In this document: one piece after another, positions 2,728 through 55,477 of the stretch
How the letters are laid out: each line of letters opens with the position of its first letter
Numbering within the stretch: position 1 is the stretch's first letter
Source of the DNA: Patescibacteria group bacterium
Lineage (GTDB): Bacteria; Patescibacteriota; Minisyncoccia; UBA6257; 1-14-0-10-40-38
Reading direction: 5' to 3'
NCBI GenBank assembly: GCA_038064975.1
Contig: JBBTRX010000006.1
Coordinates: 10,994 to 74,993, forward strand
Length of the DNA: 64,000 bases
Notes under the pieces: model-generated
The model's input: only the letters and a program-made list of their open reading frames with translations
The model's database searches: none
Told to the model about the DNA's origin: nothing
Position numbers and translations under genes: made by a program

Positions 2728-2783
2728 AAAAGACCCCTGCCAGCTCTGCCGAATTTTGGCGAGCGAAGACAGGGGTTGAGTGG

Positions 2784-5601: not shown

Positions 5602-5874
5602 TTAATCTAAGCTTCTAAAAATCCATGCAAGTAGGGCGAAAACAATGGCGTAGAAAATACCGTTCAATGTTGCGAAGAGTAGGATATTAAAAATCCCCGG
5701 AAGTGAAGCAAAATAGTCGGAAAAAGGCTGTATTACAAACCGCACCGGATAGAGAAATGGAATTGCGACAACTTCAACCCAACGGATTGCAAGTCCAAGT
5801 GTGGCGACAAAGGTTCCTACAAAACCAAAAATAAATCCTAATGTGGAGATTCTCATATATAATGATGTTACCAT
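5602..5874 (-). CDS. Small membrane protein (hypothetical)
   Basis: 90-aa hydrophobic ORF, divergent from the ferric-reductase gene. Confidence 0.35.
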   Translation of the reverse strand: MVTSLYMRISTLGFIFGFVGTFVATLGLAIRWVEVVAIPFLYPVRFVIQPFSDYFASLPGIFNILLFATLNGIFYAIVFALLAWIFRSLD

Positions 5875-5877
5875 ATC

Positions 5878-7188
5878 ATGAACGAAATTATGAGGAGATT
5901 CCTAATCTACACAATTTTTTTTGCTAATCTCGCCGCTATTCTTCTCCTGTGGTGGAACGGATCATTATTGTTTTTTGACGGAACAACGGACGGCACATTT
6001 ATTGCATTAGGGCGACTAGCAGGGCTTTTGGCAATGTTTTTTATTCTTGTCCAACTCATTCTTGTGAGCCGTGTCCCATTTATTGAGCGTGCCTATGGTT
6101 TTGATAAATTGAATAATTTGCATCGCATCTTGGGATACACGCTCGCCGCTACAATTCCCATGCATCCGATTTTACTTTCCTTGGGATATGCGATGTCACA
6201 TGGCATTTCACCGGTGGAACAATTTATTGATTTTATTTCTAACTGGGAAGAAGTGAATAATGCGCTTATTGGATTTATCATTATCCTCACCGCCGCAGTT
6301 TTCGCACTTCCTAAAATTCGCCGATTTTTAAAATATGAGACATGGCGCGTTACGCATCTCGCGATGTACTTTGGTATTTGGTTTATCTTTGATCATCAGA
6401 CCGAAGGGGCAACAGTAAGTCACGGACTCGGCATCACTTATTGGTTTGCACTGAATTTTAGCGTTTTTGGCCTAATACTTATCTATCGGTTTCTTCGCCC
6501 CTTCTGGCTATACTACCGACATCGATTTGTTGTAGATCGTGTTGAAAGGGAAACAGGGAGTGTAACCTCCGTTTATATTACCGGAAGAGATATGGAAAAA
6601 TTCCGATATGAAGCGGGGCAGTATATTAATGTTGTTTTTCTCGCGAGGGGATTTCTACAGCCACATCCGTTTTCTATTTCCGTAGCGCCAAATGGAAAGT
6701 ATCTTCGCCTCTCTATTAGAAACTCCGGAGACTTCACATCTCGCATTCCAAAACTTACTCCCGGAACGAAAGTTATCGTAGAAGGCCCGTTGGGGAGATT
6801 TACCGAACGCGCCGCGCGCACGGAGAAATATCTTTTTATTGCGGGAGGGATAGGGATTACTCCGATTCGCGCGATGGCAGAATCTATTAAAGAGAAGGGT
6901 GGAGACATGATCTTCGTCTACAATAATAGGAGTATGGCAGACGTTCCTCTCAAGTCCGAGTTGGACGCGCTCGTTATGAATCGTAAATATGTGTTTTCTG
7001 ATATGGCAGAATCCGGTCATGAATTTGGAAAAGTTACTGCAGAGATGATCGCGCGTTTCGCACGCGACTTCCGTGATCGGGATGTCTACATCTGCGGGCC
7101 ATGGCCGATGATGAAATCAGTCATCGCATCGTTACGGGAGTCCGGGGTTCCCAAGCGGCAAATCCACTTTGAAAAATTCTCGTATTAA
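5878..7188 (+). CDS. Ferric reductase/NADPH-oxidase-like flavocytochrome (6-TM heme domain plus FAD/NAD(P)-binding domain)
   Basis: Paired His residues in TM helices (HRILGYT...HPILL; HLAMYFGIWFIFDH). Then HPFSIS (FAD RxYS-like), GPLG and FIAGGIGITP (NAD-binding) motifs. Size and architecture resemble bacterial NOX (SpNOX-type). Confidence 0.75.
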   Translation: MNEIMRRFLIYTIFFANLAAILLLWWNGSLLFFDGTTDGTFIALGRLAGLLAMFFILVQLILVSRVPFIERAYGFDKLNNLHRILGYTLAATIPMHPILLSLGYAMSHGISPVEQFIDFISNWEEVNNALIGFIIILTAAVFALPKIRRFLKYETWRVTHLAMYFGIWFIFDHQTEGATVSHGLGITYWFALNFSVFGLILIYRFLRPFWLYYRHRFVVDRVERETGSVTSVYITGRDMEKFRYEAGQYINVVFLARGFLQPHPFSISVAPNGKYLRLSIRNSGDFTSRIPKLTPGTKVIVEGPLGRFTERAARTEKYLFIAGGIGITPIRAMAESIKEKGGDMIFVYNNRSMADVPLKSELDALVMNRKYVFSDMAESGHEFGKVTAEMIARFARDFRDRDVYICGPWPMMKSVIASLRESGVPKRQIHFEKFSY

Positions 7189-12016: not shown

Positions 12017-12814
12017 ATGACTCGTTCGAAAGTCATGGTCGCGGACTCGAGCATTTCGGCTCCGCAGATGATGGATTTCTGGCGTAAGATCGGCGATGGA
12101 TCAATCGATGGCATTCGGCTCCAACGCTTCCTTCATAATCCCTCTTGGGATAGTGATAAGACGGAAGTCACGCTCGCGCGAGCGATTAACATACTCGGCG
12201 AGCAAAAAATCGTCAGCATCGATCTGGCGGCAAAAGCTCGAAAAATTGGAGTGGGATTTATTGCGGAATTCTATAATCGTAGGATTCGTTACTCTGAGAT
12301 GACACTTCGTGAGTGTGCTGAACAGAATCGCGATGGCGACGCCGACTGGCGTCTCACCTACTGTTTCGGCTTCTCGCTTCGCGAGCTTCGGGATCAGATC
12401 GGAACGGATCCGAAGAGCCAGCCTTGCTGTTACAGCAATGATTGGTGGTTGAAGAAACAAGAGGACGAGTGGGCAACGGCAAAACCCGAAACCGGCTACT
12501 ACCTCGTTGACTTCAACGGCCGCTTCGCGAGGACCTCTTGGAATAACCAAGAACGGGAAATCGCAAAGCTCGGTGGTCAGTTCTTCCGGACTCCGGAAGC
12601 GGTGATCGCCGAAGCCATCACGACGATCTTCCAAGTTCACAAAGAACGCTTGCTGGAAGAGTGGTACCATTGGGGTTCCTCTCTTGGCTCGGGCGGCGGC
12701 CGCGTGTTCGTCGGTCTCTTCGTTCAGAAGGGATGGGACCTCTACGGCGGTCTTCCTGACTACGACAGCGACGGCGACCTGCGTGTCTGTATCGCCCAGA
12801 AGTTCCAGAGCTGA
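12017..12814 (+). CDS. Hypothetical protein (GC-rich, no recognisable domain)
   Basis: 265-aa ORF with a TTGTAA-17-TATAAT promoter and AAGGA RBS upstream and a GC-hairpin terminator at 12844-12885. G+C clearly above flanks. Confidence 0.5.
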   Translation: MTRSKVMVADSSISAPQMMDFWRKIGDGSIDGIRLQRFLHNPSWDSDKTEVTLARAINILGEQKIVSIDLAAKARKIGVGFIAEFYNRRIRYSEMTLRECAEQNRDGDADWRLTYCFGFSLRELRDQIGTDPKSQPCCYSNDWWLKKQEDEWATAKPETGYYLVDFNGRFARTSWNNQEREIAKLGGQFFRTPEAVIAEAITTIFQVHKERLLEEWYHWGSSLGSGGGRVFVGLFVQKGWDLYGGLPDYDSDGDLRVCIAQKFQS

Positions 12815-17901: not shown

Positions 17902-18369
17902 ATGAGGAAAAACAAACCGATTCTTGTTTGGATTTTTCTTGTTGTTATCCTCGGCGTTGTTGTATTTTTCGCGTGGAAATTGATAAGTCCAAATCAGCGG
18001 AACGTTGCCGCATGGAAAAATGCAGACGTACGCTGCCTTTCAAATCGCGAACCGGTAAGCGGAGGGGATTATTCTGTACTACAAATTCTGGTGGACGGCT
18101 CACCAGAAGCTATTCCGGAACAAATCGGTGTAGCAAAGCGTTGCATGGCGGAACTTTATACGTCGGATATATCGGGAACAATCTATATTGATCCTGCGAC
18201 TCCGGAGAAAACATTTACGCTTGGTCAATTTTTTAAAATTTGGAGAGAGCCGATGGAACGCGAGGGATATAAAATGCATATGACGGTAAACGGACTTCCT
18301 AATACACAATTTGAAAATCTAGTTTTAGAAGACAAACAGCTTATTATTCTGGAATATGACCGAAAATAA
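17902..18369 (+). CDS. Membrane-anchored hypothetical protein at the head of the pilus locus
   Basis: N-terminal TM helix plus ~125-aa extracytoplasmic domain. Overlaps pilB by 14 nt (operon). Confidence 0.45.
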   Translation: MRKNKPILVWIFLVVILGVVVFFAWKLISPNQRNVAAWKNADVRCLSNREPVSGGDYSVLQILVDGSPEAIPEQIGVAKRCMAELYTSDISGTIYIDPATPEKTFTLGQFFKIWREPMEREGYKMHMTVNGLPNTQFENLVLEDKQLIILEYDRK

Positions 18370-19651
18370 TAATCAAAATACGGGGCAGCAGGCAGCGCCG
18401 AACGCGGAAGCTGAAAGCAGTCATCGGCATACGGAGAGTATTGAAGAGATGAAACAGCAATTGGAAGGGAATCCAAACCAGATTTCCGTCATTAAGCTTG
18501 TGGACGCGATTGTTGTTGCAGCTTTTGAAGCTCGTGCTTCGGATATCCACGTTGATCCGGAGGGGGATAAAATCCGCATCCGGTTCAGAATTGACGGCGT
18601 TCTTCACGACAATTTTTCTCTGCCAAAAAATCTGCAATCGGAACTTGTAACGCGCATTAAAATTCTTGCCGGCCTTCGCACGGACGAACATCAAGCCGCG
18701 CAAGACGGAAGGTTTAAGATGCAAGTTCCGGGCCACGACCACTTAGACGTCCGTGTTTCCATCGCGCCCACATACTATGGAGAAAACTGCGTGATGCGCT
18801 TGCTTGCAGAGCAGTCACAGGGGCTTTCGCTGGAATCTCTCGGATATTCTGTAAAAAATCTTGAAATTTTAAACAGCTCGATGCGCCGCCCGTACGGCAT
18901 GATCTTGGCAACGGGACCAACCGGTTCCGGAAAAACGACATCGCTCTATGCGGTGCTTAAAAAATTAAACATCCCGGACGTATCTATCATTACGATTGAA
19001 GACCCAATTGAATACTCCATCGGCGGCATTGACCAAGTGCAGGTGAATACGAGAACCGGACTTACGTTCTCAGACGGACTGCGCTTTATCTTGCGTCAAG
19101 ATCCGAACATTATCATGGTCGGCGAAATTAGAGACGACGACACGGCAAAAATCGCAGTTAACGCCGCGATGACGGGGCACTTAGTGCTCTCCACGCTCCA
19201 CACAAATGACTCTGCGACGACTCTTCCTCGGCTTTTAGACATGGGAGTAGAGCCCTTCCTAATTGCTTCCACAATCAATATTGCGATCGGCCAACGCTTG
19301 GTACGCAAAGTGTGTAATGATTGTAGGGCAGAACGGCAGTTAAAACCGGAAGAGATTGTATCGCTTAAAGGCACGGTGCCGGATAAATATTTAAATCGCG
19401 ACCAGACATTTGTGGTCGGAGTAGGGTGCAAGAAATGTGAAGGAACTGGCTACAAAGGCAGAATCGGTATCCATGAAGTCCTTCAAATTACGGAACCGAT
19501 CCGCAAACTTATTATGCAGAGGGCAACCGCGGCGGAGATTCGGAGAGCCGCAATCGCGGAAGGGATGGTACCCATGTTGGAAGACGGTATTGAAAAAGCG
19601 ATGAGCGGAGTAACTACAATAGAAGAAGTCTTACGTGTATTCCATGAATAA
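18356..19651 (+). CDS. pilB: Type IV pilus assembly ATPase PilB/GspE family (short form lacking N-terminal domains)
   Basis: Walker A (ATGPTGSGKTTSLYA), Asp box, Walker B/His box (VLSTLHTND) and the tetracysteine motif CNDC...CKKCEG specific to PilB/GspE rather than PilT. Confidence 0.85.
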   Translation: MTENNNQNTGQQAAPNAEAESSHRHTESIEEMKQQLEGNPNQISVIKLVDAIVVAAFEARASDIHVDPEGDKIRIRFRIDGVLHDNFSLPKNLQSELVTRIKILAGLRTDEHQAAQDGRFKMQVPGHDHLDVRVSIAPTYYGENCVMRLLAEQSQGLSLESLGYSVKNLEILNSSMRRPYGMILATGPTGSGKTTSLYAVLKKLNIPDVSIITIEDPIEYSIGGIDQVQVNTRTGLTFSDGLRFILRQDPNIIMVGEIRDDDTAKIAVNAAMTGHLVLSTLHTNDSATTLPRLLDMGVEPFLIASTINIAIGQRLVRKVCNDCRAERQLKPEEIVSLKGTVPDKYLNRDQTFVVGVGCKKCEGTGYKGRIGIHEVLQITEPIRKLIMQRATAAEIRRAAIAEGMVPMLEDGIEKAMSGVTTIEEVLRVFHE

Positions 19652-20711
19652 AAAATTTGAAAACATGTTTTTGCACGTTTCGTTGGATGAAAGAATTCTT
19701 TTCACCAAGAATCTTGCGCTTGCGTTAAAATCTGGCATCTCGCTCGTGAATAGCTTGAAGCTGATTGACCGGCAGACAAAAAGCAAATCCTTTAAAAAAG
19801 TTTTAGCATCGCTCATGGAAGACGCGAATCGCGGAGTTTTCCTTTCGGATGGGCTCGTGAAATTCAAAAATATTTTCGGAGATTTATTTATCAACGTCAT
19901 CAAAGTCGCGGAAACAAGCGGTACGTTGCCGGAAAACTTGATTTATCTCGGCAATGAGCTCGGAAAAAAAGCTGAGCTGCGGAAAAAAATCCGCGGTGCG
20001 CTTATCTACCCGATTATTATTTTAATCGCGACAGTCGTCATTGGCGTAACGATGGTGGTCTTTGTATTCCCAAAAATTCTTCCGCTTTTTGAAAATACGG
20101 ACGTCGTACTTCCATTTACCACGCGTACGCTTATTTGGTTCTCCGCAGTCATCTCCTCATACGGCATTTGGATCGGCTTGGGACTCATCGCTCTCTTTAT
20201 CGGGCTTCGTTTCTTACTCAAATTAAAGCCGATAAGATATATCTATGACAGCTCGCTCTTTTATGTTCCTTTTTTGGGAAAATCTATTGTGAACTACAAC
20301 ATTGCGAACTTTACACGTACCTTCGGATTACTCCTTACGAGCGGCGTGCAAATCACAGAAGCATTGAACATCGCAGCGCTTACGCTTACGAATACCGTCT
20401 ATCGGAGCGAGCTGGAAGAAGCGGCGAACGGCGTGCGCAAAGGAGAATTCCTTTCAAAATTTATTACAACGCGCCCTCGCCATTTTCCGATTATCGCTTC
20501 TAACATGATTGAAGTGGGCGAAAACACAGGCAATCTTACTGAAAATTTGAAATATCTTTCCGAGTACTACGAAAACGAAGTTGATGATTTTGTAAAAAAC
20601 TTATCCAGCATCTTAGAACCGATTTTACTCCTCGTTATGGGTGGTATTGTGGGGTTTATCGCGCTTTCATTTATTACGCCGATTTATCAGGTGACACAAA
20701 CGATTAGGTAA
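19635..20711 (+). CDS. pilC: Type IV pilus platform protein PilC/GspF family
   Basis: Two T2SSF-like repeats with three TM segments. Start overlaps the pilB stop. Confidence 0.85.
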   Translation: MYSMNKKFENMFLHVSLDERILFTKNLALALKSGISLVNSLKLIDRQTKSKSFKKVLASLMEDANRGVFLSDGLVKFKNIFGDLFINVIKVAETSGTLPENLIYLGNELGKKAELRKKIRGALIYPIIILIATVVIGVTMVVFVFPKILPLFENTDVVLPFTTRTLIWFSAVISSYGIWIGLGLIALFIGLRFLLKLKPIRYIYDSSLFYVPFLGKSIVNYNIANFTRTFGLLLTSGVQITEALNIAALTLTNTVYRSELEEAANGVRKGEFLSKFITTRPRHFPIIASNMIEVGENTGNLTENLKYLSEYYENEVDDFVKNLSSILEPILLLVMGGIVGFIALSFITPIYQVTQTIR

Positions 20712-20715
20712 AAAT

Positions 20716-20745
20716 AGAATAAGGAATAAAGAATAAGGAATTAAG
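20716..20745. repeat. Intergenic repeat family 2, inverted copy (GAATAAGGAATAAAGAATAAGGAAT)
   Basis: Reverse complement matches the CCTTATTCTTTATTCCTTAT core of 34212-34238. Confidence 0.5.
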
Positions 20746-20851
20746 AATGAAGCAAAAAATACAAATCCTTTATTCTTTATACTTGATTCTTTATACTCGT
20801 TTATTCTTGTGCACAACCCTTCGCACGGAAGGCGGGGTATAATAAGAAGTA

Positions 20852-22651
20852 ATGCGCTTTTCATTTTTGAAACAAAAGCGTGGCGTTACATTGCTTGAAA
20901 CGCTCATTAGCATAACGATACTTTTGATTATCGCTGTTAGCGTGTATCGCGGATTTTCCGCGCTCTTAGATATTCTCGGAGCATCACGTACGCGTATCGC
21001 GGCTGCTCAAGTTGCGAATGAGCAAATAGAAATTATTCGTAATCTTCCGTACGCAAGTGTAGGTACGGTGGGAGGCGCGCCGACAGGAGTTATTACAGCG
21101 CTGGTTACAAAAGAAAAAGGAGGGCTTACGTTTACAATAGAAACAACTATTCGCAATGTGGACGATCCGTTTGACGGATTGCTCGGCGGCTCGCCAAACG
21201 ATCTTTCTCCTGCGGATTACAAACTAATTGAATTAAATATCACATGCGTGTTGTGTGATGACCCCACGACGTTTACATTTACAGGAAGAGCGGCTCCTAA
21301 AGGATTAGAGACGGCAAGCACGAATGGAGCGTTATTCGTTCAAGTAGTGGACGCTAATGGGCAAGCAGTTTCGGGGGCGACTGTTACTATCACAAATACA
21401 ACAGTAGTTCCTAACATCAATATTACTGACGTTACAGATGCAAGCGGATTTTTAAAAATTATTGATGCTCCGCCGGCAGTCCAGTCGTATCGTATTACAG
21501 TAAGCAAATCAGGATATTCTTCGGATCAGACCTACACATCAAGCGTAGCAAATCCTAACCCTACAAAGCCCCATGTTACGGTTGCCATACAGACGGTGAC
21601 TCAAGCGACATTCTCTATAGACCGCGTGAGTACAATTAATGCTTCCAGTCTTACACAAACCTGCGGAGGAGTCGGGAGTTTTGATTTTAGAGTAACGGGG
21701 AGCAAACTTATCGGCACCGCTCCCGATGTTCCAAAATTTAATCAAACGGTTATGACGAACAGTTCAGGACTACTTACATTAAATACTATAGAGTGGGGCA
21801 ATTACGTTATGGATTTCACTCTGGATTCTAATTTAGATGTGTTAGGTACCATCCCGGGGCTTCCGCTTACCGTAAACCCAAATAGTACGCAAGATTTTAA
21901 AATTATTACGGGACCGAAAAATCCACGCGCGCTCGTCGTTACGGTCCGCGACGCGACGAATTCCCAGCCGCTTGCGAACGCAAGCGTAGTTATTGATTCG
22001 GGGCCCTACAGTGCGATAAAGACGACAGGTAAGGGATCTCTCACACAAACGGATTGGTCCGGCGGAGACGGACAATTAGTTTTTGGAAGCGATACGCAAT
22101 ATTTCAGCCAGGACGGAAATATTGTAACCAATAATCCTGTAGGGGACATAACGCTCGCGGAAACGGAGCCGTCCGTATACGCTGCTTCAGGAAACCTTAC
22201 TTCGTCTCTCTTTGATACAGGTTCGCCCAGCAACTTTTTTCATCTCACATGGGAGCCGATAAGCCAACCTGCTGAAACTAACGTGAAATTTCAAATCGCG
22301 AGTGCGACTACGACAACACCATTTGAATGGACGTATCTCGGTCCTGATGGTACGGAAGGCACCTATTACACAACGAGCGGTACTGCTATTGCCGCGGAGC
22401 ATAACGGCGACCAATATATTAGGTACCGTGCATTTTTGGAAACCGCGAGCACAACCTTTACTCCGTCCATTTCCGACGTGGGGATTACGTTCGCTTCCGA
22501 TTGCGTTCCTCCCGGCCAGGCATATTTTGGTGGGCTTGCAATTGATACCTATAATGTAGACGTTACTATTCCGGGCTTCGCTCCGGAAAGCCAGCTCATG
22601 ACAGTAAATAATGATTGGCAGGAATTAGAAGTAATGATGAATCCGCAATAA
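20852..22651 (+). CDS. Giant (599 aa) type IV pilin-like protein with prepilin N-terminal methylation motif
   Basis: KRG|VTLLETLISITILLIIAV is a class III signal (Gly, hydrophobic helix, Glu+5). Followed by ~560 aa of Thr/Ser/Asn-rich beta-type domains. Confidence 0.75.
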   Translation: MRFSFLKQKRGVTLLETLISITILLIIAVSVYRGFSALLDILGASRTRIAAAQVANEQIEIIRNLPYASVGTVGGAPTGVITALVTKEKGGLTFTIETTIRNVDDPFDGLLGGSPNDLSPADYKLIELNITCVLCDDPTTFTFTGRAAPKGLETASTNGALFVQVVDANGQAVSGATVTITNTTVVPNINITDVTDASGFLKIIDAPPAVQSYRITVSKSGYSSDQTYTSSVANPNPTKPHVTVAIQTVTQATFSIDRVSTINASSLTQTCGGVGSFDFRVTGSKLIGTAPDVPKFNQTVMTNSSGLLTLNTIEWGNYVMDFTLDSNLDVLGTIPGLPLTVNPNSTQDFKIITGPKNPRALVVTVRDATNSQPLANASVVIDSGPYSAIKTTGKGSLTQTDWSGGDGQLVFGSDTQYFSQDGNIVTNNPVGDITLAETEPSVYAASGNLTSSLFDTGSPSNFFHLTWEPISQPAETNVKFQIASATTTTPFEWTYLGPDGTEGTYYTTSGTAIAAEHNGDQYIRYRAFLETASTTFTPSISDVGITFASDCVPPGQAYFGGLAIDTYNVDVTIPGFAPESQLMTVNNDWQELEVMMNPQ

Positions 22652-22656
22652 ATGAT

Positions 22657-23328
22657 ATGAAGAAAAAAATATATAATGTTCGTCGCGTTTTGCTAAACCA
22701 CGACATCTTCGTCGCTCTTCGCTCCTCGAAAGGTTTTACGCTGATTGAGTTTTTGATTACATTTGCCGTCATTCTTGCGGTTGGTGGCGGCATTGTCGTA
22801 TTCCAGAGGGATTTATTTGTATTCAATTCATACATTGGAAAATCTCTTTCCATCGGACGGGATGCGGAGCGGGTGGTGCGTGATATCGTGAGAGAAGTTC
22901 GATCTGCTTCCCAATCTAGTATTGGGGCATATCCGATAGAAATTGCGAAAGACAATGAGTTTATTTTCTTTGCCAATATTGATAAAGGGGCAGAGCGCGA
23001 GAGAATTCATTACTATCTTTCCGGCGATGAACTAAAAAGGAGTATTATTTACCCCACCGGTCAGCCGCTTACTTACAGTACAACGACAGGAGCGCAGGAA
23101 AGTGTGCGGACGGTGCTTAGGAATATCATCTCAACTACCACTCCTATTTTTACGTACTATAATAATACCTATGCGGGTACGACGACACCGCTTACCCAAC
23201 CCGTTCCGGTATTAAACATTCGTGTCGTAGGTATCATGATTACTGTTGACGAAGTATTAAATCAACTTCCTCCTCCACTCTCATTTTCCAGTAAAGTTAC
23301 TATTAGAAATTTGAGAGATAATCCGTAA
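22657..23328 (+). CDS. Type IV pilin-like protein with unusually long (about 29 aa) leader
   Basis: SSKG|FTLIEFLITFAVILAV prepilin motif. ATG at 22657 follows the upstream TAA by 5 nt. A shorter TTG-initiated leader is possible. Confidence 0.7.
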   Translation: MKKKIYNVRRVLLNHDIFVALRSSKGFTLIEFLITFAVILAVGGGIVVFQRDLFVFNSYIGKSLSIGRDAERVVRDIVREVRSASQSSIGAYPIEIAKDNEFIFFANIDKGAERERIHYYLSGDELKRSIIYPTGQPLTYSTTTGAQESVRTVLRNIISTTTPIFTYYNNTYAGTTTPLTQPVPVLNIRVVGIMITVDEVLNQLPPPLSFSSKVTIRNLRDNP

Positions 23329-23382
23329 ACCATAACCATGTGTAGTTTCAAAAAAAACAAATTGACGACAAGGAGTGGACAG

Positions 23383-24804
23383 ATGCTTATCCACACCCTT
23401 CTTTTAATGACGCTTTCCGTTGCCTTTCTTACCGTACTTACGAATCTCGCGCTTACTAATATTACGGAAGTTACTCGATCGGTGCAGTCCGAGCAAGCAT
23501 TCCAAATCGCCGAGGCGGGAATTGAATATTATCGGTGGCATTTAGCGCATTCTCCAGAGGACTATACTAACGGTACCGGACTTCCCGGTCCATATGCTGT
23601 TGATTATTATAATCGTGAGGGAAATAAAATTGGGCAATTTATTTTAACTATTACAGCCCCTATTCTTGGTTCAACGGTTACAACAATACGCTCCACCGGC
23701 ATATTAGACGATGCGCCGGGAAGTGCGCGCACTATTGAAGCAAAGATGGGTATTGCATCATTTACAAAATTTGCTGTTGTGGCGAACGACACGATGTACT
23801 TTGGTGTGGGTACGGAAACCTTTGGACTTATTCACTCCAATGGAGGAATTCGTTTTGACGGACTTGCCCATAATTTAATCACGAGCGCCGTTGCGAGCTA
23901 TAACGATCCCGATCACTCGGGACAAGATGAATTTGGCGTTCATACGCATGTTTCGCCCGTTGATCCGCTTCCTCCAGCACAGGTTCCCGAACGACCAGAT
24001 GTCTTCATGGCGGGCAGGCAATTTCCAGTTCCAGCAATTGATTTTGACGGCATTATTGCAGATTTGGCGGAAATAAAATCCGATGCACAAGCAAATGGAA
24101 CTTATTTTCCGGATTCCGGCCAATCTGGTTATGACGTCATTGTAAAAACTAACGATACGTTTGATGTATATCGGGTAAACAGTATCGTTCCAAAACCACA
24201 AGGATGTTCTAACGTTGTAGCGGATAACGACTGGGACACGTGGAGCGTCAATACAAAGACATTTTTAGGTAATTATCCCTTTCCTGCAAACGGACTCATC
24301 TTTTTTGAAGATGATATTTGGGTAAGTGGGCAAATTGATTCCGCACGCATTACGATAGGCGCCGCGCGTTTCCCCGAAACTCCCGGACAGATTAAAAATA
24401 TCAATATCAATAATGATCTTCGGTACACGAATTACGACGGGACTGACGTTATTGGTCTTATCTCCCAAAACGATATCAACGTAGGGTTATATAGTGAAGA
24501 TGATTTACGTATTGACGGTGCTCTCATTTCTAAAAATGAGCGAATCGGGCGCCTGTATTACCGTGCTCCAACGGAAAATAATACCTATTGCGGGCCTGAA
24601 GCCCTGCGGGATACCGTGACCCTTTTTGGCATGTTGGCCACAAATGAACGCTATGGATTCAGCTGGACCTGTGGGGGAGTGTACTGCTCAGGATACGAAA
24701 CCCGTACCATTATTTACGATAATAATTTACTCTTCAGTCCGCCACCCGGATTTCCATTAACGTCTGACCAGTACGAAGTTTTCTCGTGGGAAGAGATCCG
24801 TTGA
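23383..24804 (+). CDS. PilX-like N-terminal domain protein (putative pilus-associated minor component)
   Basis: Start chosen at MLIHTLLL, which has AAGGAG 7 nt upstream. N-terminus (hydrophobic helix then SVQSEQAFQIAEAGIEYY) resembles the PilX_N pattern. Large Asn/Asp-rich C-terminal region. Confidence 0.5.
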   Translation: MLIHTLLLMTLSVAFLTVLTNLALTNITEVTRSVQSEQAFQIAEAGIEYYRWHLAHSPEDYTNGTGLPGPYAVDYYNREGNKIGQFILTITAPILGSTVTTIRSTGILDDAPGSARTIEAKMGIASFTKFAVVANDTMYFGVGTETFGLIHSNGGIRFDGLAHNLITSAVASYNDPDHSGQDEFGVHTHVSPVDPLPPAQVPERPDVFMAGRQFPVPAIDFDGIIADLAEIKSDAQANGTYFPDSGQSGYDVIVKTNDTFDVYRVNSIVPKPQGCSNVVADNDWDTWSVNTKTFLGNYPFPANGLIFFEDDIWVSGQIDSARITIGAARFPETPGQIKNININNDLRYTNYDGTDVIGLISQNDINVGLYSEDDLRIDGALISKNERIGRLYYRAPTENNTYCGPEALRDTVTLFGMLATNERYGFSWTCGGVYCSGYETRTIIYDNNLLFSPPPGFPLTSDQYEVFSWEEIR

Positions 24805-24845
24805 TCAGTTAATCAGTGGACAGTTAATGAGTTGAACAGTTTAAG
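24804..24845. repeat. Intergenic repeat family 1 (inverted orientation)
   Basis: TCAGTTAATCAGTGGACAGTTAATGAGTTGAACAGTTTAAG is the reverse complement of the 17805-17866 core. Confidence 0.7.
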
Positions 24846-24877
24846 AAACGGAGATTGATTTCTTATCGGTCTTAAAA

Positions 24878-24925
24878 TAAAAAAGAGCTCCCTCCCGTAC
24901 ATGATGTACGAAAGGGAGCTTTGTT
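24878..24925. terminator. Nested hairpin terminator (GCTCCCT...CGTACATGATGTACG...AGGGAGC) flanked by A/T runs
   Basis: Lies 3' of the minus-strand GC-rich ORF. Confidence 0.5.
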
Positions 24926-24931
24926 CCTGGG

Positions 24932-25558
24932 CTAGGAGGGCTTGCGAACGCCGGCAAACCACCAGTCGTCGTCCCAGTCGAGGTCGTCGCGGTTGACGAA
25001 CACCCCGCGCCCGTCGTGCCAACGGCCGAACGTGGCGTAGCACCAGTTGCCCTCGGCATCCTTCCAGTGAGTGCCGTGAGGCTTCTCATCCGCGAAGGCG
25101 GGGTCGGCTTCGTTCACGGCGGCGAGGGAGTAGGGGTCGGCGGGATTGAGGCCACGCAGATCGAACTCATGTGCAAGGTCGTCATCGGAGATGAAACCGT
25201 TGCGGTTTGAGAGGTCAGGTTTGAAGAACACAACCTCCACTTCATCGGCCGAGGCCTTAGGCATCGCATCCACGATCTTGCGGTACGTGTACTGCGCGCG
25301 ATGAGTGGCATCGAGCGCCTCTTGTGGAGAGCGGCTGCGATTCACGTTGACCGTACGGACGATGAGATTCGAGATCGCGTGAGTGCAATCGCGGAAGGGA
25401 GCGAACATCATCATTCCAAGATTCGGGATACCGAGAACGTGTTGAGCGACATCCGAGGTGATCTGGGAACGATGCTTGCGCATCGCGTCGCGAAGTTTGT
25501 TCACGGCATTTTCGATCTGGCCGTCAGTCATTTCGGTTGCGGTCATGATCTTCGTCAT
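24932..25558 (-). CDS. Hypothetical protein, strongly GC-rich (about 60-67% by eye); start taken at MTKIM, which has AAAGGA 7 nt upstream
   Basis: Long ORF in a sharply bounded high-GC block. Asp/Trp-rich C-terminus (DDLDWDDDWWFAG). No recognisable domain. Confidence 0.5.
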   Translation of the reverse strand: MTKIMTATEMTDGQIENAVNKLRDAMRKHRSQITSDVAQHVLGIPNLGMMMFAPFRDCTHAISNLIVRTVNVNRSRSPQEALDATHRAQYTYRKIVDAMPKASADEVEVVFFKPDLSNRNGFISDDDLAHEFDLRGLNPADPYSLAAVNEADPAFADEKPHGTHWKDAEGNWCYATFGRWHDGRGVFVNRDDLDWDDDWWFAGVRKPS

Positions 25559-25720
25559 GGCGTCATCCTTTCTTGTTTTCCGTCGGCTGGCGGATTTCCT
25601 CTGCGCCGAGGAGGCACTATGGTCCGATGTGGTCATAGCGAGGAGAGGCCTTTCACTAGGTAGGGAATAAGCCGCTTTTCGCTATGACCATCTAAATTCG
25701 TATCAAAGAGCTATGAACAT

Positions 25721-25750
25721 ATTATAGCATACTTTTATGTATTCTGTCAA
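25721..25750 (-). promoter_or_regulatory. Consensus sigma70-type promoter (TTGACA-18-TATAAT) driving the GC-rich ORF
   Basis: The reverse complement of 25721-25750 reads TTGACAgaatacataaaagtatgcTATAAT. A large inverted repeat follows in the 5' UTR. Confidence 0.5.
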
Positions 25751-25757
25751 TATGCCA

Positions 25758-25797
25758 CAAAAAAGCCGCATCATCTGCGGCCTTCTTGTTGTATATT
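25758..25797 (-). terminator. Intrinsic terminator of the 945-aa surface protein gene
   Basis: Minus strand reads GCCGCAGATGATGCGGC followed by TTTTTT. Confidence 0.55.
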
Positions 25798-25838: not shown

Positions 25839-28676
25839 TTAATTCTTATAATACACTCGTTTCGTACTAAACTCTCGTGCGATGAAGAAGATTATCAAGA
25901 TAAGAAGAATGATGAGAAGAATCCATCCGAAGGGAATAGAGAGTCCAAAGATAGATGCAAGGAATCCTGAACCGCTGACCGTAAACGTGCGGTATGCGCT
26001 TGTGGATTGATCCTGATTGTTTGCGTCGCGATAATTCATAACAGCACCAGCAGTAAGCGTGTCGCCGGTTTCCATATTGTCTCTTACACGCAATGTAAGT
26101 CGTACGGAATTTTGATCCAGCGGATTAAGATTTCCAAGGTTAAAGGTTACAACGTTATTTGATTCAGAAGCTACCGAATTCGAAGATGAAATAAATTCCA
26201 ATCCATCGGAAAGCGTGATGCGGAGCATAAGACGAGATACCGCGTGACGATCACTGTCATTCCAATAGTTCAATGTGTAGATAATCGTTTCTCCCGGAGC
26301 CGGATTATTATTGTCAGCTGTTGGAGAAAGTACTATTGACGGAGAAATTTGAGAAACTGGAGTGGATGGTTTTGGAGGCGTTGTCGGTTGTGGCGGAACA
26401 AAGACGCTTCGCGTTTTAAAGCTCGTTATCGTTCCGTAGGATGTGCCAAAGTTATTTGTTGCGGTTACGCGATAATAGTAGGTAGTATTCGGCGAAAGGC
26501 TAGGAAGGAACCATGAGAAAGGAATTGATCCTTGTCCAAATCCAATATCGCGAGAAACAGTTGAATTGCCGAGCGATGGAGTCGTACCCCATTCAAAGCG
26601 TGCAGTCGTCTGCGATCCGCGAGGATCAACAGTGCTGTTTAACTGCGCGGAGATAGTTTCTACAAGTGAAGCGCCATTTGTGGAAACAAAGGGAATATTA
26701 CCCGATCCATTGAATCCCGATGAGGTATTAAATGAGAGGACAGAGCCGTATACGGTACCGAAACTATTCTGTGCAACAGCGCGGAAGTAGTACGTGGTAT
26801 TCTGTGAAAGATTAAAGAGGCTAGTGAAGTATGTTGAACCTCCAAATCCGCTTCCAATGAATTGCTGATTGGTTGTATTGCCGAGCGACTGCGAAGTGCC
26901 ATATTCAAACCATGCATTCATTTGCGATCCGTTCGGATTTGCGAATCCTTGAAGCGTTGCCGATGTTTGATTGATTGATGTTGCATTCAAGGTTGAAACA
27001 GTTGGGAAGTTGCCCTGCGAACCGCCGCTGCCAGATGTCGTAAATGAGAGGATACTGCCATAACTTGTGCTAAACGTGTTTTGTCCGACTGCACGGAAGT
27101 AGTAGGTAGTATTTGGAGCAAGATTTTGGATGGTGGATGAGAAATTCAAACTGGAATTTCCTGAACCGATACCCATGGATGCAGTTGAATTGCCGAGGAA
27201 TTGTGAAGTGCCGTATTCAAACCAGCCGCTCGTGAAAGCAGAGTTCGGATTTACGGATCCATGCAAGGTTGCGCTATTCGCACTAATATTGCTTGAAAAA
27301 ATCGTGTTCACAAATGGGCTGCCCGATCCGCCACCACCTCCGGTATTTCCACCTTGGGTAGTAAAGGAAAGAATGCTTCCAAATGTGGTCCCTGAAGAAT
27401 TCTGCGCGACAACGCGGAAGTAATAGGTAGTATTCTGTGAAAGATTAAAGAGTGAAGCACTTACATTAACGTTCCCATTTCCGTTGCCGACAGTCTGAGA
27501 ACCAACCGTGTTGCCAAGACTGAATGATGTGCCCCATTCAAATCGAACGTCAGTAAAGCCGCCATTTGGATTTACGGTACCGTTCAAAAGCGCACTGTTC
27601 TGTCCCACCCCGGAAGCGCTGTTCGTAGTTGCGGAAGGTGCCGATCCTGAAGATTGATTCGCCTGCGTAGTAAAGGAAAGGATGCTTCCTTGGGTTGTGC
27701 CGTAACTATTTGATCCGACGGCGCGGAAATAATAGGTCGTATTCGGAGAAAGATTTTGGATTGAGAACGAATAGTTTACGGATCCGTTGCCACTGCCTAC
27801 GTTTTGATTGCCTACGGTGTTGCCGAGCGACTGCGAAGTGCCATATTCAAACCATGCGTTGGTTGAGTTGCCGTTTGGATTTGCGGAACCCTGAAGTGTT
27901 GCGGATGTTTGTTCGATGCTATATGCAGAGAGGGTAGTAATGTTCGGTGCTGATCCGGACTGTCCTCCACCTTGAGTTGTAAAAGAAAGGATAGTTCCTT
28001 CACTTGCTCCAACATTAGACGCTCCGACCGCCCGGAAATAATACGTCGTGTTTGGGGAAAGATTATTAATAGATTTGGAAACGTTTACGAAGGAAGATCC
28101 GCTTCCTGCTGATTGCTGATTTGTTGCGTTTCCGAGTGATTGCGATGTACCCCACTCAAACCATACATCGGTATTTTTGCCTTCAGGGTTTACAGAAGCA
28201 TTTAAAGTTGCGGAAGTCTGACTTACATTAGTCGCTGGTTTTGTGATTACCGTTGGAAGGGAACCTGTAGGAGGATTGTCGGTCGTAGTGAAGCTGACTA
28301 TTGCTCCATAGCCGATGCCGAATGTATTTTTAGAAACTGCACGAACATAATAGGTAGTTCCCGCGGTAAGGCTTGATACTGATGCGGAAAAATCAGTACT
28401 TAACGATTTTGGATAACTTGTAATATTGTGTCCCGTTGAGAATGAATTAGAGGGCGTAAGGGAAGGGCTTGTGCCATATTCAAACCACGTAATGACATTT
28501 CCAGTAGAGGATTGCGTTTCGTGGCCAGAGAAAGTTGCGGATGTTTTGGTTACATTTTCAGCGGAAAATGTAGTGACGTCTGGTGCTGACGTTGCGGAAA
28601 CGGGGAACGCGAACGCAAGGGCTCCTATGAGTCCAAGTGCTATAAATACTGTATTTCTGGATAATTTTGCTGTCAT
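25839..28676 (-). CDS. Large secreted surface protein: signal peptide, about 8 tandem FN3-like repeats (~100 aa each), DUF11-like domain, conserved C-terminal GFLAS-TM-basic tail
   Basis: Repeats of ...WFEYGTSQSLGN...NLSPNTTYYFRAVG.N..G...GSILSFTTQ. C-terminus SGSGFLASIFGLSIP plus a 20-residue hydrophobic helix plus REFSTKR. The repeats are also visible as ~300-bp periodic near-identity at DNA level. Confidence 0.8.
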   Translation of the reverse strand: MTAKLSRNTVFIALGLIGALAFAFPVSATSAPDVTTFSAENVTKTSATFSGHETQSSTGNVITWFEYGTSPSLTPSNSFSTGHNITSYPKSLSTDFSASVSSLTAGTTYYVRAVSKNTFGIGYGAIVSFTTTDNPPTGSLPTVITKPATNVSQTSATLNASVNPEGKNTDVWFEWGTSQSLGNATNQQSAGSGSSFVNVSKSINNLSPNTTYYFRAVGASNVGASEGTILSFTTQGGGQSGSAPNITTLSAYSIEQTSATLQGSANPNGNSTNAWFEYGTSQSLGNTVGNQNVGSGNGSVNYSFSIQNLSPNTTYYFRAVGSNSYGTTQGSILSFTTQANQSSGSAPSATTNSASGVGQNSALLNGTVNPNGGFTDVRFEWGTSFSLGNTVGSQTVGNGNGNVNVSASLFNLSQNTTYYFRVVAQNSSGTTFGSILSFTTQGGNTGGGGGSGSPFVNTIFSSNISANSATLHGSVNPNSAFTSGWFEYGTSQFLGNSTASMGIGSGNSSLNFSSTIQNLAPNTTYYFRAVGQNTFSTSYGSILSFTTSGSGGSQGNFPTVSTLNATSINQTSATLQGFANPNGSQMNAWFEYGTSQSLGNTTNQQFIGSGFGGSTYFTSLFNLSQNTTYYFRAVAQNSFGTVYGSVLSFNTSSGFNGSGNIPFVSTNGASLVETISAQLNSTVDPRGSQTTARFEWGTTPSLGNSTVSRDIGFGQGSIPFSWFLPSLSPNTTYYYRVTATNNFGTSYGTITSFKTRSVFVPPQPTTPPKPSTPVSQISPSIVLSPTADNNNPAPGETIIYTLNYWNDSDRHAVSRLMLRITLSDGLEFISSSNSVASESNNVVTFNLGNLNPLDQNSVRLTLRVRDNMETGDTLTAGAVMNYRDANNQDQSTSAYRTFTVSGSGFLASIFGLSIPFGWILLIILLILIIFFIAREFSTKRVYYKN

Positions 28677-31318: not shown

Positions 31319-31350
31319 GATCAACTGTCCACTCATCAACTTCTTTAACT
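31315..31350. repeat. Intergenic repeat family 1
   Basis: AACTGATCAACTGTCCACTCATCAACTTCTTTAACT, fused to the pilin 5' fragment. Confidence 0.7.
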
Positions 31351-32896
31351 AGTTGTTAGTCGTATCAAAAATACTTGTACTTCTGCCTTGGGGAGCTTGC
31401 GGAGCTTTTGGTTTGCGCCGTTCGTAAATTACGAACGAAAGGCCAAGAAGCGTTGCGAAGACAATTCCTCCTACAACAATGACTCGTTTTCTAGTAAAGG
31501 GATTCACTCCTCCTAGATCGCCAATTGTGAACGGAATCGGATCGCCAACGAGTTCGGGGACACCGTTTCGTATCGCATAAATTTTAACTAAATATTTTCC
31601 GTTGCCGAGGCGTTCCACAATAACCTGACGTGAAGCTGCATCTACAAAGAGACTTTTTTGAAGAATATTATTTTCGTCAAAAATATCAATTCGGTATCCG
31701 GTAATCCCATCGGTATTTTCCGGAGCTTCCCAGGAAATAGTAACCGTGCCGGTACCGTCCTCGTTGTCTTCGGTCGCAGCTGACTCTTCGCCAGATCCGG
31801 ATCCTGTAGGCGGTTCGTTATCTCCACCGGTTGGCGGAGGTTCGTTTCCGGAAGGAGGATTATTATTGTCTGGAGGAGGGGGTGGTGGCGGGGGAATAAA
31901 TGCACCACAGTTTGGATCTGTGAGATCAATCAGTCCATCACCATCATTATCTATATTGTCTGAGCAGAGAGCTTGCGTGTTTTCAACTCCTCCAGTTGGC
32001 GGAGGCGGAGGCGGAGGCGGAGGCGGCGGAGGCGGCGGTTCGTTGTCTCCACCGGTTGGCGGAGGAGTTCCGGACGAGGGGCTTTCAAATGTTCCTGAAA
32101 CATTTGTTTCGTTTCCCCAATTGTCTTTTGCAAATAGGATATAGGAATAGGTCTCATCAGGAATTACGGAGATCGTAAGTGTGCACGGAGTTTGTACGTA
32201 GGGGCAGACAGTGTAATTGCCGATGTACGCTGTACTTTGCGTTCCACTACCTTCCGGCCCGTACGTTACACGGTAATCCACAGGCTCATTCGCGGTAAAA
32301 GAAATTTTGACTGAATTCAATGAAAGTTCAGTTACCGTCGTCGTTCCAAGAATTGGGGGAGCGGTTTCATTTGTTTCATAGAGTCCATATTTAAACGCAA
32401 AACTTTGATCGTCTTGGCCTAAAAGCGCGGGCTCTACAGGGAAAAGAGTTGAAGCTCCTGCATTATGCGTAAGAATTTGGAATTGAGTTGAATAATGTAG
32501 TTGAAGATTCGGCATCGTCGTCACCATACGGATGCGATATTTTTTTGTGACGGTAATCGGAATTTGCGTGTCCAAATCTACATGGAATTTTGTTCCTCCA
32601 TATTTTTCCGCAATAGTAGGAATGGTAACTGTTTTTGAACTGAGGAGCGTATTTGCTTCGTCACGGATTCCAAATGTAGCAGTTCCGGATGATCCAGTAT
32701 TCGTGAGCCACACGTCAAAGCCGCTCAAAAAATCATTTGCTGCGTAGAATGGTTGGGCGGGCGTTTCTCCGAATGCGGCGAGCAGGCTTTCGTTGTCATC
32801 GGGAGCAAATTCAAAAAAGTTCGTGCCGTGCGCGAATGCAGTGCTTACGACAACAACTCCCAAAAAGATCGCGAGTAATCTATGGAGAAAGAGCAT
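31349..32896 (-). CDS. Secreted/anchored surface protein with poly-Pro linkers, Ca-binding-like DxDxDG loop and C-terminal TM anchor
   Basis: Signal peptide MLFLHRLLAIFLGVVVVSTAFA. PPPPPPPPPPPPPP and PPPPPPP runs. DNDGDGLIDLTD (EF-hand/dockerin-like). C-terminal hydrophobic helix plus ERRKPK. Confidence 0.6.
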   Translation of the reverse strand: MLFLHRLLAIFLGVVVVSTAFAHGTNFFEFAPDDNESLLAAFGETPAQPFYAANDFLSGFDVWLTNTGSSGTATFGIRDEANTLLSSKTVTIPTIAEKYGGTKFHVDLDTQIPITVTKKYRIRMVTTMPNLQLHYSTQFQILTHNAGASTLFPVEPALLGQDDQSFAFKYGLYETNETAPPILGTTTVTELSLNSVKISFTANEPVDYRVTYGPEGSGTQSTAYIGNYTVCPYVQTPCTLTISVIPDETYSYILFAKDNWGNETNVSGTFESPSSGTPPPTGGDNEPPPPPPPPPPPPPPTGGVENTQALCSDNIDNDGDGLIDLTDPNCGAFIPPPPPPPPDNNNPPSGNEPPPTGGDNEPPTGSGSGEESAATEDNEDGTGTVTISWEAPENTDGITGYRIDIFDENNILQKSLFVDAASRQVIVERLGNGKYLVKIYAIRNGVPELVGDPIPFTIGDLGGVNPFTRKRVIVVGGIVFATLLGLSFVIYERRKPKAPQAPQGRSTSIFDTTNN

Positions 32897-32991: not shown

Positions 32992-33351
32992 ATGGAGCCC
33001 ATAAAACCAGATGATTCTTATCTTGAGGGGTTAAAGAAGCGCTCTATGGAGCCTATCAAGTCAGAGAATTCTTATCTGGATGAGCTTAAAAGCCGTTCCA
33101 AACAAACTCGTGCTTATACGCGTTATCAGGATACCGGCGTGCAGATTGCGTATCTCTTAGGAGATCTGAAGCATAAATCGCTCTATATTAAGCTTGCAAA
33201 AGAAGGAGATGCAGATATGCTTTTCCGTCTTGCAAAGAGTATTGCGGAAAATAAATTAATCAAAAATCCCGGAGCATATTTTATGCGCCTAGTTACTAAA
33301 AAAGACGATTCCAAATCACATGAAAATCGTAACGATAGAAAACGACGATAA
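32992..33351 (+). CDS. Hypothetical protein with tandem 18-aa N-terminal repeat (MEPIKPDDSYLEGLKKRS / MEPIKSENSYLDELKSRS)
   Basis: ORF overlaps the def start by 32 nt. Repeat visible at protein and DNA level. Confidence 0.3.
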   Translation: MEPIKPDDSYLEGLKKRSMEPIKSENSYLDELKSRSKQTRAYTRYQDTGVQIAYLLGDLKHKSLYIKLAKEGDADMLFRLAKSIAENKLIKNPGAYFMRLVTKKDDSKSHENRNDRKRR

Positions 33352-33820
33352 AGCGGAGATTCTCAAAACAAGAATTCCTGATGTTGATATTCACGCGATG
33401 AATAAGAGTGTTATTCGCGAACTTGCACGTGATATGCGCAAAATTATGCGCGCCGCGGATGGCGTCGGTCTTGCCGCGAATCAAATCGGATTGAATATTA
33501 GAATGTTTGTAGCAGAAGTACCTGGCGAACGTGGTGGTCGCCCGAAATTTTACGCCCTCTTAAATCCCGAAATTATTAAAGTTTCTAAAGAGAAGCAAGT
33601 TGTGGAAGAAGGGTGTCTGAGTGTTCCCGGTATATTCGGTCCAACTCCGCGAGCCGAAAAAATAACTTTCGTGGGATACGATGCGAATGGGAAAAAAGTA
33701 AAAATAAAAGCCTGGGGTTTTCTCGCGCGCGTACTTCAGCATGAAACTGATCATTTGAACGGACATCTCTTTACGGAAAAAGCTAAATCTTTGCATCCCG
33801 TAGAAATAAAAAAAGTATAA
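33320..33820 (+). CDS. def: Peptide deformylase
   Basis: GVGLAANQIG, EGCLSVPG and QHETDHLNG motifs. Confidence 0.9.
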   Translation: MKIVTIENDDKAEILKTRIPDVDIHAMNKSVIRELARDMRKIMRAADGVGLAANQIGLNIRMFVAEVPGERGGRPKFYALLNPEIIKVSKEKQVVEEGCLSVPGIFGPTPRAEKITFVGYDANGKKVKIKAWGFLARVLQHETDHLNGHLFTEKAKSLHPVEIKKV

Positions 33821-33845: not shown

Positions 33846-34211
33846 ATGTCAAAAATAATTAATTTCACTGATCTTATTGCATGGCAAGAGGCGCATAAAG
33901 TAGTTTTGTCGTTATATAAAGCTACGGAACAATTTCCTAATAAGGAAATATATGGACTTACTAGCCAAATGCGCCGCGCCGCTATTTCTCTGACAAGTAA
34001 TATTGCCGAAGGATTTTCTCGTAAATCTTCAAAAGAGAAAATACAATTTTATGCCATTACGTTGGGTTCAAATACCGAATTACAGAATCAACTTATGCTT
34101 GCTCGAGATCTGGGATATATTCCGCCGGAGCAGTTTCATTCTATATTTCAAGATATAATAAGAGTTCATAAACTAACTAATGGTCTTATTCGCGGTCTTC
34201 GGGAAGCATAA
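33846..34211 (+). CDS. Four-helix-bundle protein (23S rRNA intervening-sequence protein family)
   Basis: Characteristic 120-aa pattern IAWQ.A..L...IY..T..FP..E.Y.L..Q.RRAA.SI..NIAEGF, often found between def and fmt. Confidence 0.75.
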   Translation: MSKIINFTDLIAWQEAHKVVLSLYKATEQFPNKEIYGLTSQMRRAAISLTSNIAEGFSRKSSKEKIQFYAITLGSNTELQNQLMLARDLGYIPPEQFHSIFQDIIRVHKLTNGLIRGLREA

Positions 34212-34250: not shown

Positions 34251-35084
34251 ATGAAATTCGCTTTCCTTGGTACTCCTGAATTTGCAAAAATTGTTCTTGA
34301 ACAGCTGATAAGGGAAGGAATGCCCCCTACAGTCGTGGTATGCAATCCTGACCGCCCCGTGGGTAGAAAACACGCCATCACTCCTCCTCCGGTGAAAATA
34401 TTAGCGGAAGAACACAAGATTCCTGTATTCCAGCCAGAAACTCTTATCAGAGACGAGTGGCAAGTAAGAATGAAAGGCGTTGAGTTTGCCGTTGTCGCCG
34501 CATACGCAAAAATACTACCAAAAGAAATTTTGGATATTTTTCAAAAAGGCATTATTGGCGTACATCCTTCGCTTCTGCCGGAATTCCGTGGATCTACTCC
34601 GATCCAAAGCGCAATTATTTCGGGAGTAAAAGAAACGGGCGTAACTTTATTTATAACTGATAAAAAAACAGATCACGGCCCGATATTGGCTATAAAGCGT
34701 TTTAAAATAGCTTCAAACGATACGTCGTTTACGCTTATGAGCAAACTTGCGGAACTAGGAGGAATGCTTCTTGTGGAAACTATTCCTCAATGGGTAAGTG
34801 GGAAGATTAAGCCGCACGAGCAAGACCACAAGAAAGCAATAATGACTAAAAAGATTCAGACGACCGAGGCATATATTAATCCTGAAGATTTAACCATTGC
34901 AGAAGATGGAGATAAAGAAAAAGCAGGCGTAATCGAAAGGAAAATTCGCGCGTTCAATCCGGAACCCGGTGCATGGACGATGAAAGATGGAAAGCGCCTT
35001 AAGCTTCTCCAAGCAATTGTAAAAGACGATAAGCTAGTGCTTCAAAAAATACAGTGGGAAGGGAAAAAACCAACGAAGAAATAA
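34251..35084 (+). CDS. fmt: Methionyl-tRNA formyltransferase
   Basis: N-terminal FLGTPEFA, the catalytic formyltransferase signature IIGVHPSLLPEFRGSTPIQ and a C-terminal tRNA-binding domain. Confidence 0.9.
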   Translation: MKFAFLGTPEFAKIVLEQLIREGMPPTVVVCNPDRPVGRKHAITPPPVKILAEEHKIPVFQPETLIRDEWQVRMKGVEFAVVAAYAKILPKEILDIFQKGIIGVHPSLLPEFRGSTPIQSAIISGVKETGVTLFITDKKTDHGPILAIKRFKIASNDTSFTLMSKLAELGGMLLVETIPQWVSGKIKPHEQDHKKAIMTKKIQTTEAYINPEDLTIAEDGDKEKAGVIERKIRAFNPEPGAWTMKDGKRLKLLQAIVKDDKLVLQKIQWEGKKPTKK

Positions 35085-55430: not shown

Positions 55431-55477
55431 GAATAAAAAATCGTCCGATGCGTTCTGCACCGGACGATACTGGTTTT

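Follow-up and report, generated by a model that had tools for sequence, protein, structure and literature searches.

Within the window, the whole 64-kb stretch of DNA that was analysed, a single minus-strand gene is surrounded by its own expression signals. Gene and signals comprise the following features, all on the minus strand, listed from the promoter to the terminator.

25721-25750, minus strand: sigma-70-type promoter TTGACA-18-(TG)TATAAT, 12 of 12 consensus positions matched, extended -10
25559-25712, minus strand: structured 5' leader RNA, candidate RNA switch, with a 5' UCUUU, helix P1 and its inner hairpin P1b, an alternative-helix segment, a CCUCC hairpin and the Shine-Dalgarno sequence (SD)
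25680-25690, minus strand: 5' arm of P1, UGGUCAUAGCG, one arm of an 11-nt inverted repeat
25630-25640, minus strand: 3' arm of P1, CGCUAUGACCA, which includes the upstream AUG in frame with the gene and doubles as 5' strand of the alternative helix
25615-25621, minus strand: CAUAGUG segment, alternative partner of the P1 3' arm (7 pairs, 98.1% of alignment cells paired)
25610-25614, minus strand: invariant, anti-SD-like CCUCC in the small hairpin P2, found in 23 of 23 leaders
25566-25572, minus strand: Shine-Dalgarno sequence GAAAGGA, 7 nt ahead of the ATG at 25558
24932-25558, minus strand: coding sequence of 208 aa, variable protein of a diversity-generating retroelement (DGR), with a predicted N-terminal three-helix region and C-type-lectin-fold domain
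24942-25042, minus strand: variable repeat (VR), codons 173-206, aligning over 101 nt without gaps to the template repeats (TRs) of 11 other genomes
24942-24965, minus strand: GC-rich, non-mutated 3' end of the VR, IMH-like, CUGGUGGUUUGCCGGCGUUCGCAA, where the homology to full cassettes ends
24876-24920, minus strand: intrinsic terminator, a 16-bp hairpin (stem 24920-24886) with a T-tract, starting 11 nt past the stop codon

The ORF has a GC content of 59.2% with a GC3 of 74.6%, compared to a mean of 44.3% over the 64 kb. Among all 627-nt windows (sd 3.6), the maximum of 59.6% was found at 24918-25544, and the ORF lies about 4 sd above the mean in the highest-GC stretch of the 64 kb, which bears out the sliding-window check that an earlier note on this DNA had proposed. 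The same note had estimated 60-67% GC for the block of 24840-25760; this is true of its 3' half only, as the block has 54.4% overall, while the highest value among 50-nt windows, 70%, is reached near the 3' end. The boundaries are as abrupt as described, and the GC steps fall at the stop codon and at the 5' end of the leader. Second to the islet in GC content (55-56%) are 12017-12814 (+) and 55186-55812; of these, one is an ORF of 265 aa with many W, D and G residues and the other consists of overlapping ORFs on both strands.

The expression signals noted earlier were all recovered, namely, the perfect promoter, a strong ribosome-binding site at an internal Met and an own terminator, and the islet can be considered as a self-contained single-gene module with promoter, leader and terminator. 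A TTGACA-17/18-TATAMT architecture was also observed upstream of the gene in related loci. The terminator of the neighbouring 945-aa gene (25765-25781) abuts the islet promoter. On the other side, a type IV pilus-like cluster at approx. 18350-24804 encodes a T2SSE ATPase, a T2SSF platform protein and several pseudopilin-like proteins with an N-terminal methylation motif; it is convergent with the islet gene and ends 128 nt from its stop codon. Large predicted surface proteins are encoded at 25839-28676 (-), 53742-55061 (-) and 31349-32896 (-). Two of the three consist of repeated FN3/Pur_ac_phosph_N-like modules with a C-terminal hydrophobic tail, with DUF11 in the 945-aa one, and the third has long proline runs.

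The reading of 24932-25558 as a real gene held. A word-indexed protein search yielded 881 homologues at E ≤ 1e-3, all of about 206 aa and unnamed, from Patescibacteria MAGs and metagenomes, and an exhaustive search yielded 1138 clusters at 50% identity. From these relatives, 24 genome loci and 50 metagenome loci were fetched. Nearly all recovered relatives came from Patescibacteria MAGs, one of the 24 genome loci being labelled Bdellovibrionales; IMG/VR contained neither a relative nor a TR. The window protein corresponds to MEK7612211.1 and its contig originates from Hainich groundwater (ENA ERZ1292623). Its 90% cluster holds only the window protein itself with two start calls.

No match to the 208-aa protein was found among Pfam, PHROG, NCBIfam, PADLOC and PDB-sequence models. 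Structure prediction, one of the checks suggested earlier, gave a model with a pLDDT of 95, comprising a three-helix region (residues 12-63) followed by a C-type-lectin-fold domain (residues ~64-206), on which the VR is predicted to sit. Foldseek returned no match against the PDB. A signal peptide, a TM segment or an N-terminal hydrophobic segment was not evident by eye. The target protein is probably a small, non-membrane ligand binder with a diversified binding surface. The dN/dS of the target gene is 0.17-0.32, which corresponds to purifying selection; with the intact ORF, the consensus promoter and the terminator, this indicates a functional gene. A 234-aa extended ORF starting at 25636 was rejected, since the additional stretch varies like an RNA helix, with paired changes and indels, and not like codons. 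Around the start codon, the sequence GAUGACRCCAUGA (window 25556-25567 (-), all related loci) is almost invariant, even at ~50% protein identity. It holds a 3-codon mini-ORF (AUG ACR CCA UGA), the stop of which overlaps the main AUG.

The identity of the gene became apparent from the related loci. Among 51 non-redundant loci with at least 700 nt of downstream sequence, 26 have a second copy of the final ~100 nt of the gene, the TR, at a distance of ~340 nt and with 78-90% identity. In nine ungapped VR/TR pairs, 144 of 149 mismatches fall at TR adenines, mostly in AAC codons. The TRs of the family are of the TGCTACGCCACGTTCAACCGTTGGAACGAC... type. Downstream of the TR follow a bAvd gene on the opposite strand (41.7 and 45.7 bits at a cut-off of 40) and a reverse transcriptase (RT) gene (92.8 bits on RVT_1); an RT follows the TR in about 25 related loci. 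A VR-bearing target succeeded by TR, Avd and RT is the canonical anatomy of a DGR. Such elements use error-prone reverse transcription to alter the tip of a binding protein; in the family cassettes, the bAvd/RT pair copies the TR into the VR. The function of the gene had been called unknown in the earlier note; the VR/TR pairs, RT and bAvd of the family and the VR pattern of the window copy identify its product as a DGR variable protein. The islet is thus very probably a complete expression module for a DGR target protein whose lineage occurs almost only in Patescibacteria.

The cassette is a unit of ~2.6 kb that has sharp homology borders and lies in unrelated genomic contexts. In one locus (L007 440-4832; also L004 and L001), a tRNA gene, a large serine recombinase, a 448-aa protein, small ORFs and a winged-helix (Trans_reg_C) regulator are found divergently upstream of the DGR cassette, an arrangement suggestive of an integrative island with the DGR as cargo. 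The non-coding 340-nt spacer and the TR have an identity of 90-98% between hosts and are thereby better conserved than either coding gene (L006/L007/L008, ~5620-6100). Within this spacer, the same three loci have a nested hairpin, ACUAAGU...GGAC-UCCG-GUCC...ACUUAGU, along with a terminator and, before GGCAGTAGGTGAATAT, a promoter-like TATACT.

Compared to the TRs of 11 other genomes, the window VR has 14 mismatches at A sites and 1-5 others; for the TRs of L007 and L073, adenines of the TR account for 14 of the 15 differences. When the near-invariant consensus TR of the family is taken as reference, substitutions are present at 14 of 28 A sites and at only 2 of 73 non-A sites. Outside the VR, the gene and its nearest relatives are separated by 78-94 differences per 510 nt (Fisher p = 0.0002-0.003). 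Hence, the scaffold (non-A) sites of the VR are 2.7% diverged from foreign TRs vs. 15-18% for the remainder of the gene, which suggests that the VR was rewritten after divergence. The IMH-like 24 nt are retained and differ from individual family TRs at 1-3 positions. The window VR would accordingly be a product of mutagenic retrohoming that took place once the gene had diverged from its relatives, and the writer may have been a DGR elsewhere in the genome acting in trans or a DGR that was lost recently. Strong purifying selection on scaffold residues could also account for the low divergence of the VR scaffold, instead of recent rewriting.

No second copy of 24860-25760, and hence no TR, was detected in the 64-kb window with blastn at word size 7, and no RT either, as tblastn with the cassette RT gave only noise at E > 0.5. 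Neither TR nor RT was found when the search was extended by 9 kb to the left on the same contig of 155 kb (~73 kb in total), and a cassette-type avd was likewise not found in these ~73 kb. The gene is therefore a solo target, as are about half of the family loci. Its homology to full cassettes spans from ~25713-25726 to 24941, that is, from promoter and leader through the IMH-like VR end, and then stops; the conserved post-VR hairpin/terminator of the cassettes is replaced in the window by the gene's own terminator, a different hairpin that resembles a plain terminator. The assignment of the window copy as a DGR member is accordingly drawn from homology and the mutation pattern of its VR, not from a local VR/TR pair.

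The only avd-like gene of the window, 33846-34211 (+), encodes a 121-aa four-helix bundle of the generic 23S_rRNA_IVP type with a weak bAvd hit. It is located between the peptide deformylase gene def (33320-33820) and the Met-tRNA formyltransferase gene fmt (34251-35084), has no adjacent TR or RT and probably has nothing to do with the DGR target, which lies 8 kb away. A hidden cassette made up of this gene and a weak RT hit at 33202-33303 was considered and dismissed: the four-helix protein is generic, the RT hit has an E-value of 1.1, and it coincides with the overlap of two plus-strand ORFs, an unnamed one of 119 aa (32992-33351) and the start of def. The islet is not a retro-copied (processed) gene either, given that the promoter region itself is homologous in architecture to the other loci.

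The solo state bears on whether the window copy is still a substrate of a DGR. It might be a relic whose writer is gone from the genome, leaving a gene for a lectin-like protein of fixed sequence, or one that is decaying. This would agree with ~73 kb free of TR and RT, with a cassette homology that is cut exactly after the VR and with the replaced post-VR region. It would also agree with the frequency of solo loci and with broken solo copies, as an in-frame stop in L011 (5001-5615) and a truncation/frameshift in L019 (5001-5589) imply that some stand-alone targets are decaying. The window copy, however, has an intact ORF under a dN/dS well below one, it retains consensus promoter, leader, SD and terminator, its VR scaffold is far closer to foreign TRs than the rest of the gene is to its relatives, and remote targets and action in trans are documented for cellular DGRs (PMC5758913). 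We regard a relic as a real possibility, yet not as the probable state of this gene.

The 5' leader is a conserved RNA, and the inverted repeat is its helix P1. The earlier note had recognised a perfect 11-bp inverted repeat; its arms are indeed perfect, but they lie at 25630-25640 and 25680-25690 and not at 25631-25641 and 25679-25689. As also stated there, the repeat can pair across the first in-frame ATG (25636), which is located inside the P1 3' arm. With 85% complementarity, the arms can be prolonged to 20 nt. All 34 non-redundant leaders retain the 11-bp P1, with 10-11 of 11 positions paired, and changes on both sides, e.g. UUGCCAUAGCG/CGCUGUGGCAA. For P1, P1b and P2 together, 97.7% of the cells in an alignment of 23 sequences are paired and 10 pairs have compensatory changes. 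None of 500 shuffles reached the observed values, and slid registers were paired to only 27-45%. For the alternative helix between the P1 3' arm and CAUAGUG, slid registers gave 17-58%. The P1 5' arm, the P1 3' arm and CAUAGUG show three-way co-variation in L026 and L036. In P2, the closing G-C pair is replaced by U-A in 4 sequences. The SD is predicted to pair with the UCUUU at the 5' terminus of the leader (columns 6-10 with 152-156); this helix is kept in 13 of 13 sequences and is invariant, i.e. without covariation support. An internal loop, AAAAG opposite UCUCCU, is nearly invariant. A long-range pairing of the conserved 5' ACUUGCGA with the VR 3' end or with the P2 loop was discarded, being conserved neither in the window nor in L015.

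The window leader has a minimum free energy of -49.9 kcal/mol (z = -2.8). The covariance model R1 scored it with 104.8 bits at 25556-25693 (-) and its antisense strand with 35 bits; across leaders, sense scores were 100-140 bits vs. 35-50 for antisense. This gap and the frequent G-U/U-G pairs place the RNA on the sense strand. A search of Rfam 15, including RT-associated motifs and riboswitches, yielded no leader match: for the window, nothing was hit at E ≤ 1 or at the gathering score, and four other loci gave no leader match at E ≤ 0.1. No description of such a leader was found in the literature searched on DGRs and RNA motifs. A second leader copy (77 bits) with its own promoter was found in L036 at 2410-2524 (+), ahead of a 201-aa ORF (2540-3145) whose product was not recognised by Pfam and could not be related to the DGR target by hhalign (probability 0.4%). 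In front of this unrelated ORF, the leader behaves as a portable regulatory module.

Judged from its structure, the leader may be a two-state translational switch. P1/P1b and the alternative helix are mutually exclusive and would gate translation, and either the 5' UCUUU or the CCUCC loop could occlude the SD.

The high GC content was traced across the family. In 58 non-redundant loci, the target gene has 58.9 ± 2.9% GC, while the host flanks range from 34 to 57% (r = 0.22). Within the same cassette, the target has 54-62% GC and a GC3 of 64-78% compared to 31-44% and 31-51% for the RT. Distant members with 50-55% protein identity and saturated dS still have a GC3 of 0.63-0.85. High GC is thus a trait of the gene family that is kept at synonymous sites and not the mark of a donor. 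Third positions outside the VR are composed of A.13, C.43, G.26 and T.18, those of the RT of A.27, C.22, G.19 and T.32. Inside the VR, A3 falls to 0-5%; such a drop is expected from A-to-N rewriting and accounts for the peak of 66-70% GC at the 3' end. Adenine-specific depletion was rejected as the cause of the GC content outside the VR, since A3 and T3 are both about halved and no 3'-to-5' gradient was observed beyond the VR bins. In pairs of the same cassettes, the dS of the target is 0.3-0.5 while that of the RT is saturated. The synonymous sites of the target thus appear to be either constrained or repeatedly homogenised, and nucleotide-level selection and GC-biased conversion through frequent inter-cassette recombination are both compatible with the pattern.

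These data also bear on other origins of the islet. The earlier note had favoured a recently acquired foreign gene, and a donor of high GC such as an Actinobacterium, with composition not yet ameliorated, would account for 59% vs. 44% GC and for the sharp borders. What stands of this is mobility: the gene descends from a horizontally mobile cassette, as judged from the sharp homology borders of the cassette and the L007 island, and the cassette clearly moves between genomes. A recent high-GC donor is nevertheless very improbable, because the gene has ~59% GC whatever the GC of its host, the RT of the same cassette is AT-rich in comparison, members at 50-55% identity retain their GC3 at saturated dS, and nearly all recovered homologues were located in Patescibacteria MAGs rather than in Actinobacteria-type hosts, one locus being labelled Bdellovibrionales. 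The mis-assembled contaminant that had been named as an option, i.e. an assembly chimera or contaminant read-through, is even harder to credit. It would explain the abrupt change in composition, but the identical protein sequence is on record on three contigs, with places of like context collapsed, dozens of other contigs from Patescibacteria carry the promoter-leader-gene module with the same boundaries, and the flanking terminators and the promoter fit the neighbouring host genes.

High expression could in principle enrich GC through host translational selection, or a second gene on the antisense strand could constrain the composition; the strong promoter and the long antisense ORFs of several homologues are in line with this. 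Host translational selection does not appear to be the cause, because neighbouring GroEL, ribosomal-protein, SSB and RpoC genes have a GC3 of 0.25-0.51 vs. 0.67-0.75 for the target in the same loci. The antisense frame of the window is broken into pieces of 120 and 64 aa, and such frames are an expected by-product of A3-poor codons. Both variants are accordingly rated as quite improbable. The preferred reading remains that of an expression module for a DGR variable protein with a family-specific composition.

A broader proposal can be put forward tentatively and is, in our judgement, rather doubtful as a whole. The leader would represent a new class of RNA switch for the translation of DGR variable proteins, the GC3 excess and low dS would reflect either a nucleotide-level requirement of the target (for retrohoming or mRNA function) or GC-biased conversion by intense recombination, and solo targets would be served in trans. 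If so, the leader has been re-used in L036 before another small protein, the synonymous divergence of the target, 5-10 times below that of the adjacent RT, signifies such a requirement or conversion, and the spreading unit is the target module and not the RT. A covarying two-state leader before a hypermutated gene would mean regulated display of variable proteins. Neither such a leader nor a strong constraint on GC and synonymous sites that acts on the target but not on the RT of the same cassette was found described in the literature searched. In any case, an anonymous hypothetical family (1138 clusters at 50% identity, with no Pfam, NCBIfam, PHROG or PADLOC model) becomes recognisable as a DGR target. 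The solo state of about half of its copies bears on how frequent trans-acting DGRs or fixed relics are in the reduced genomes of Patescibacteria, and the case illustrates that a compositional islet need not signal recent foreign origin.

DGRs of the Candidate Phyla Radiation (CPR) were reportedly first surveyed by Paul et al. in 2017. The targets of the CPR 'DGR clade 2' are typically without TM or known domains (Roux et al. 2021, PMC8144416). The present family resembles this clade in its host phylum, its cellular rather than viral nature, a usually single target with a C-terminal VR and without TM, signal or Pfam domains, adenine-biased mutagenesis and, in the related loci, RT and Avd. It differs in that the window copy is without nearby TR, Avd or RT, and in that the family has a conserved leader RNA and a target that departs from the cognate RT in GC3 and dS, neither of which is described for the clade in the literature searched. 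Non-adjacent or remote targets and action in trans are documented, e.g. for seven Treponema targets (Wu et al. 2018, PMC5758913). Like these, the window gene carries a VR far from any RT with A-type differences from a TR; unlike them, its VR was compared with TRs of other genomes, as no cognate TR was found in ~73 kb. A GC-rich inverted repeat follows the IMH in 34% of DGRs (PMC5758913). The 16-bp hairpin of the window occupies the same position and may by analogy have a role in retrohoming.

The leader differs from known riboswitches in having no Rfam match and in that its switching is deduced from structure. It is similar to translational riboswitches in its conserved multi-helix architecture, in an internal loop of invariant sequence, in helices that exclude one another and in an element close to the SD that resembles an anti-SD. 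The closest comparators for the predicted fold are the C-type-lectin-fold variable proteins Mtd of Bordetella phage BPP-1 (1yu0) and TvpA of Treponema denticola (2y3c). Compared to these systems, the gene for a CPR-type DGR variable protein is of a known kind, while the leader RNA and the family-wide anomaly in GC and synonymous sites relative to its own RT are not described in the literature searched.
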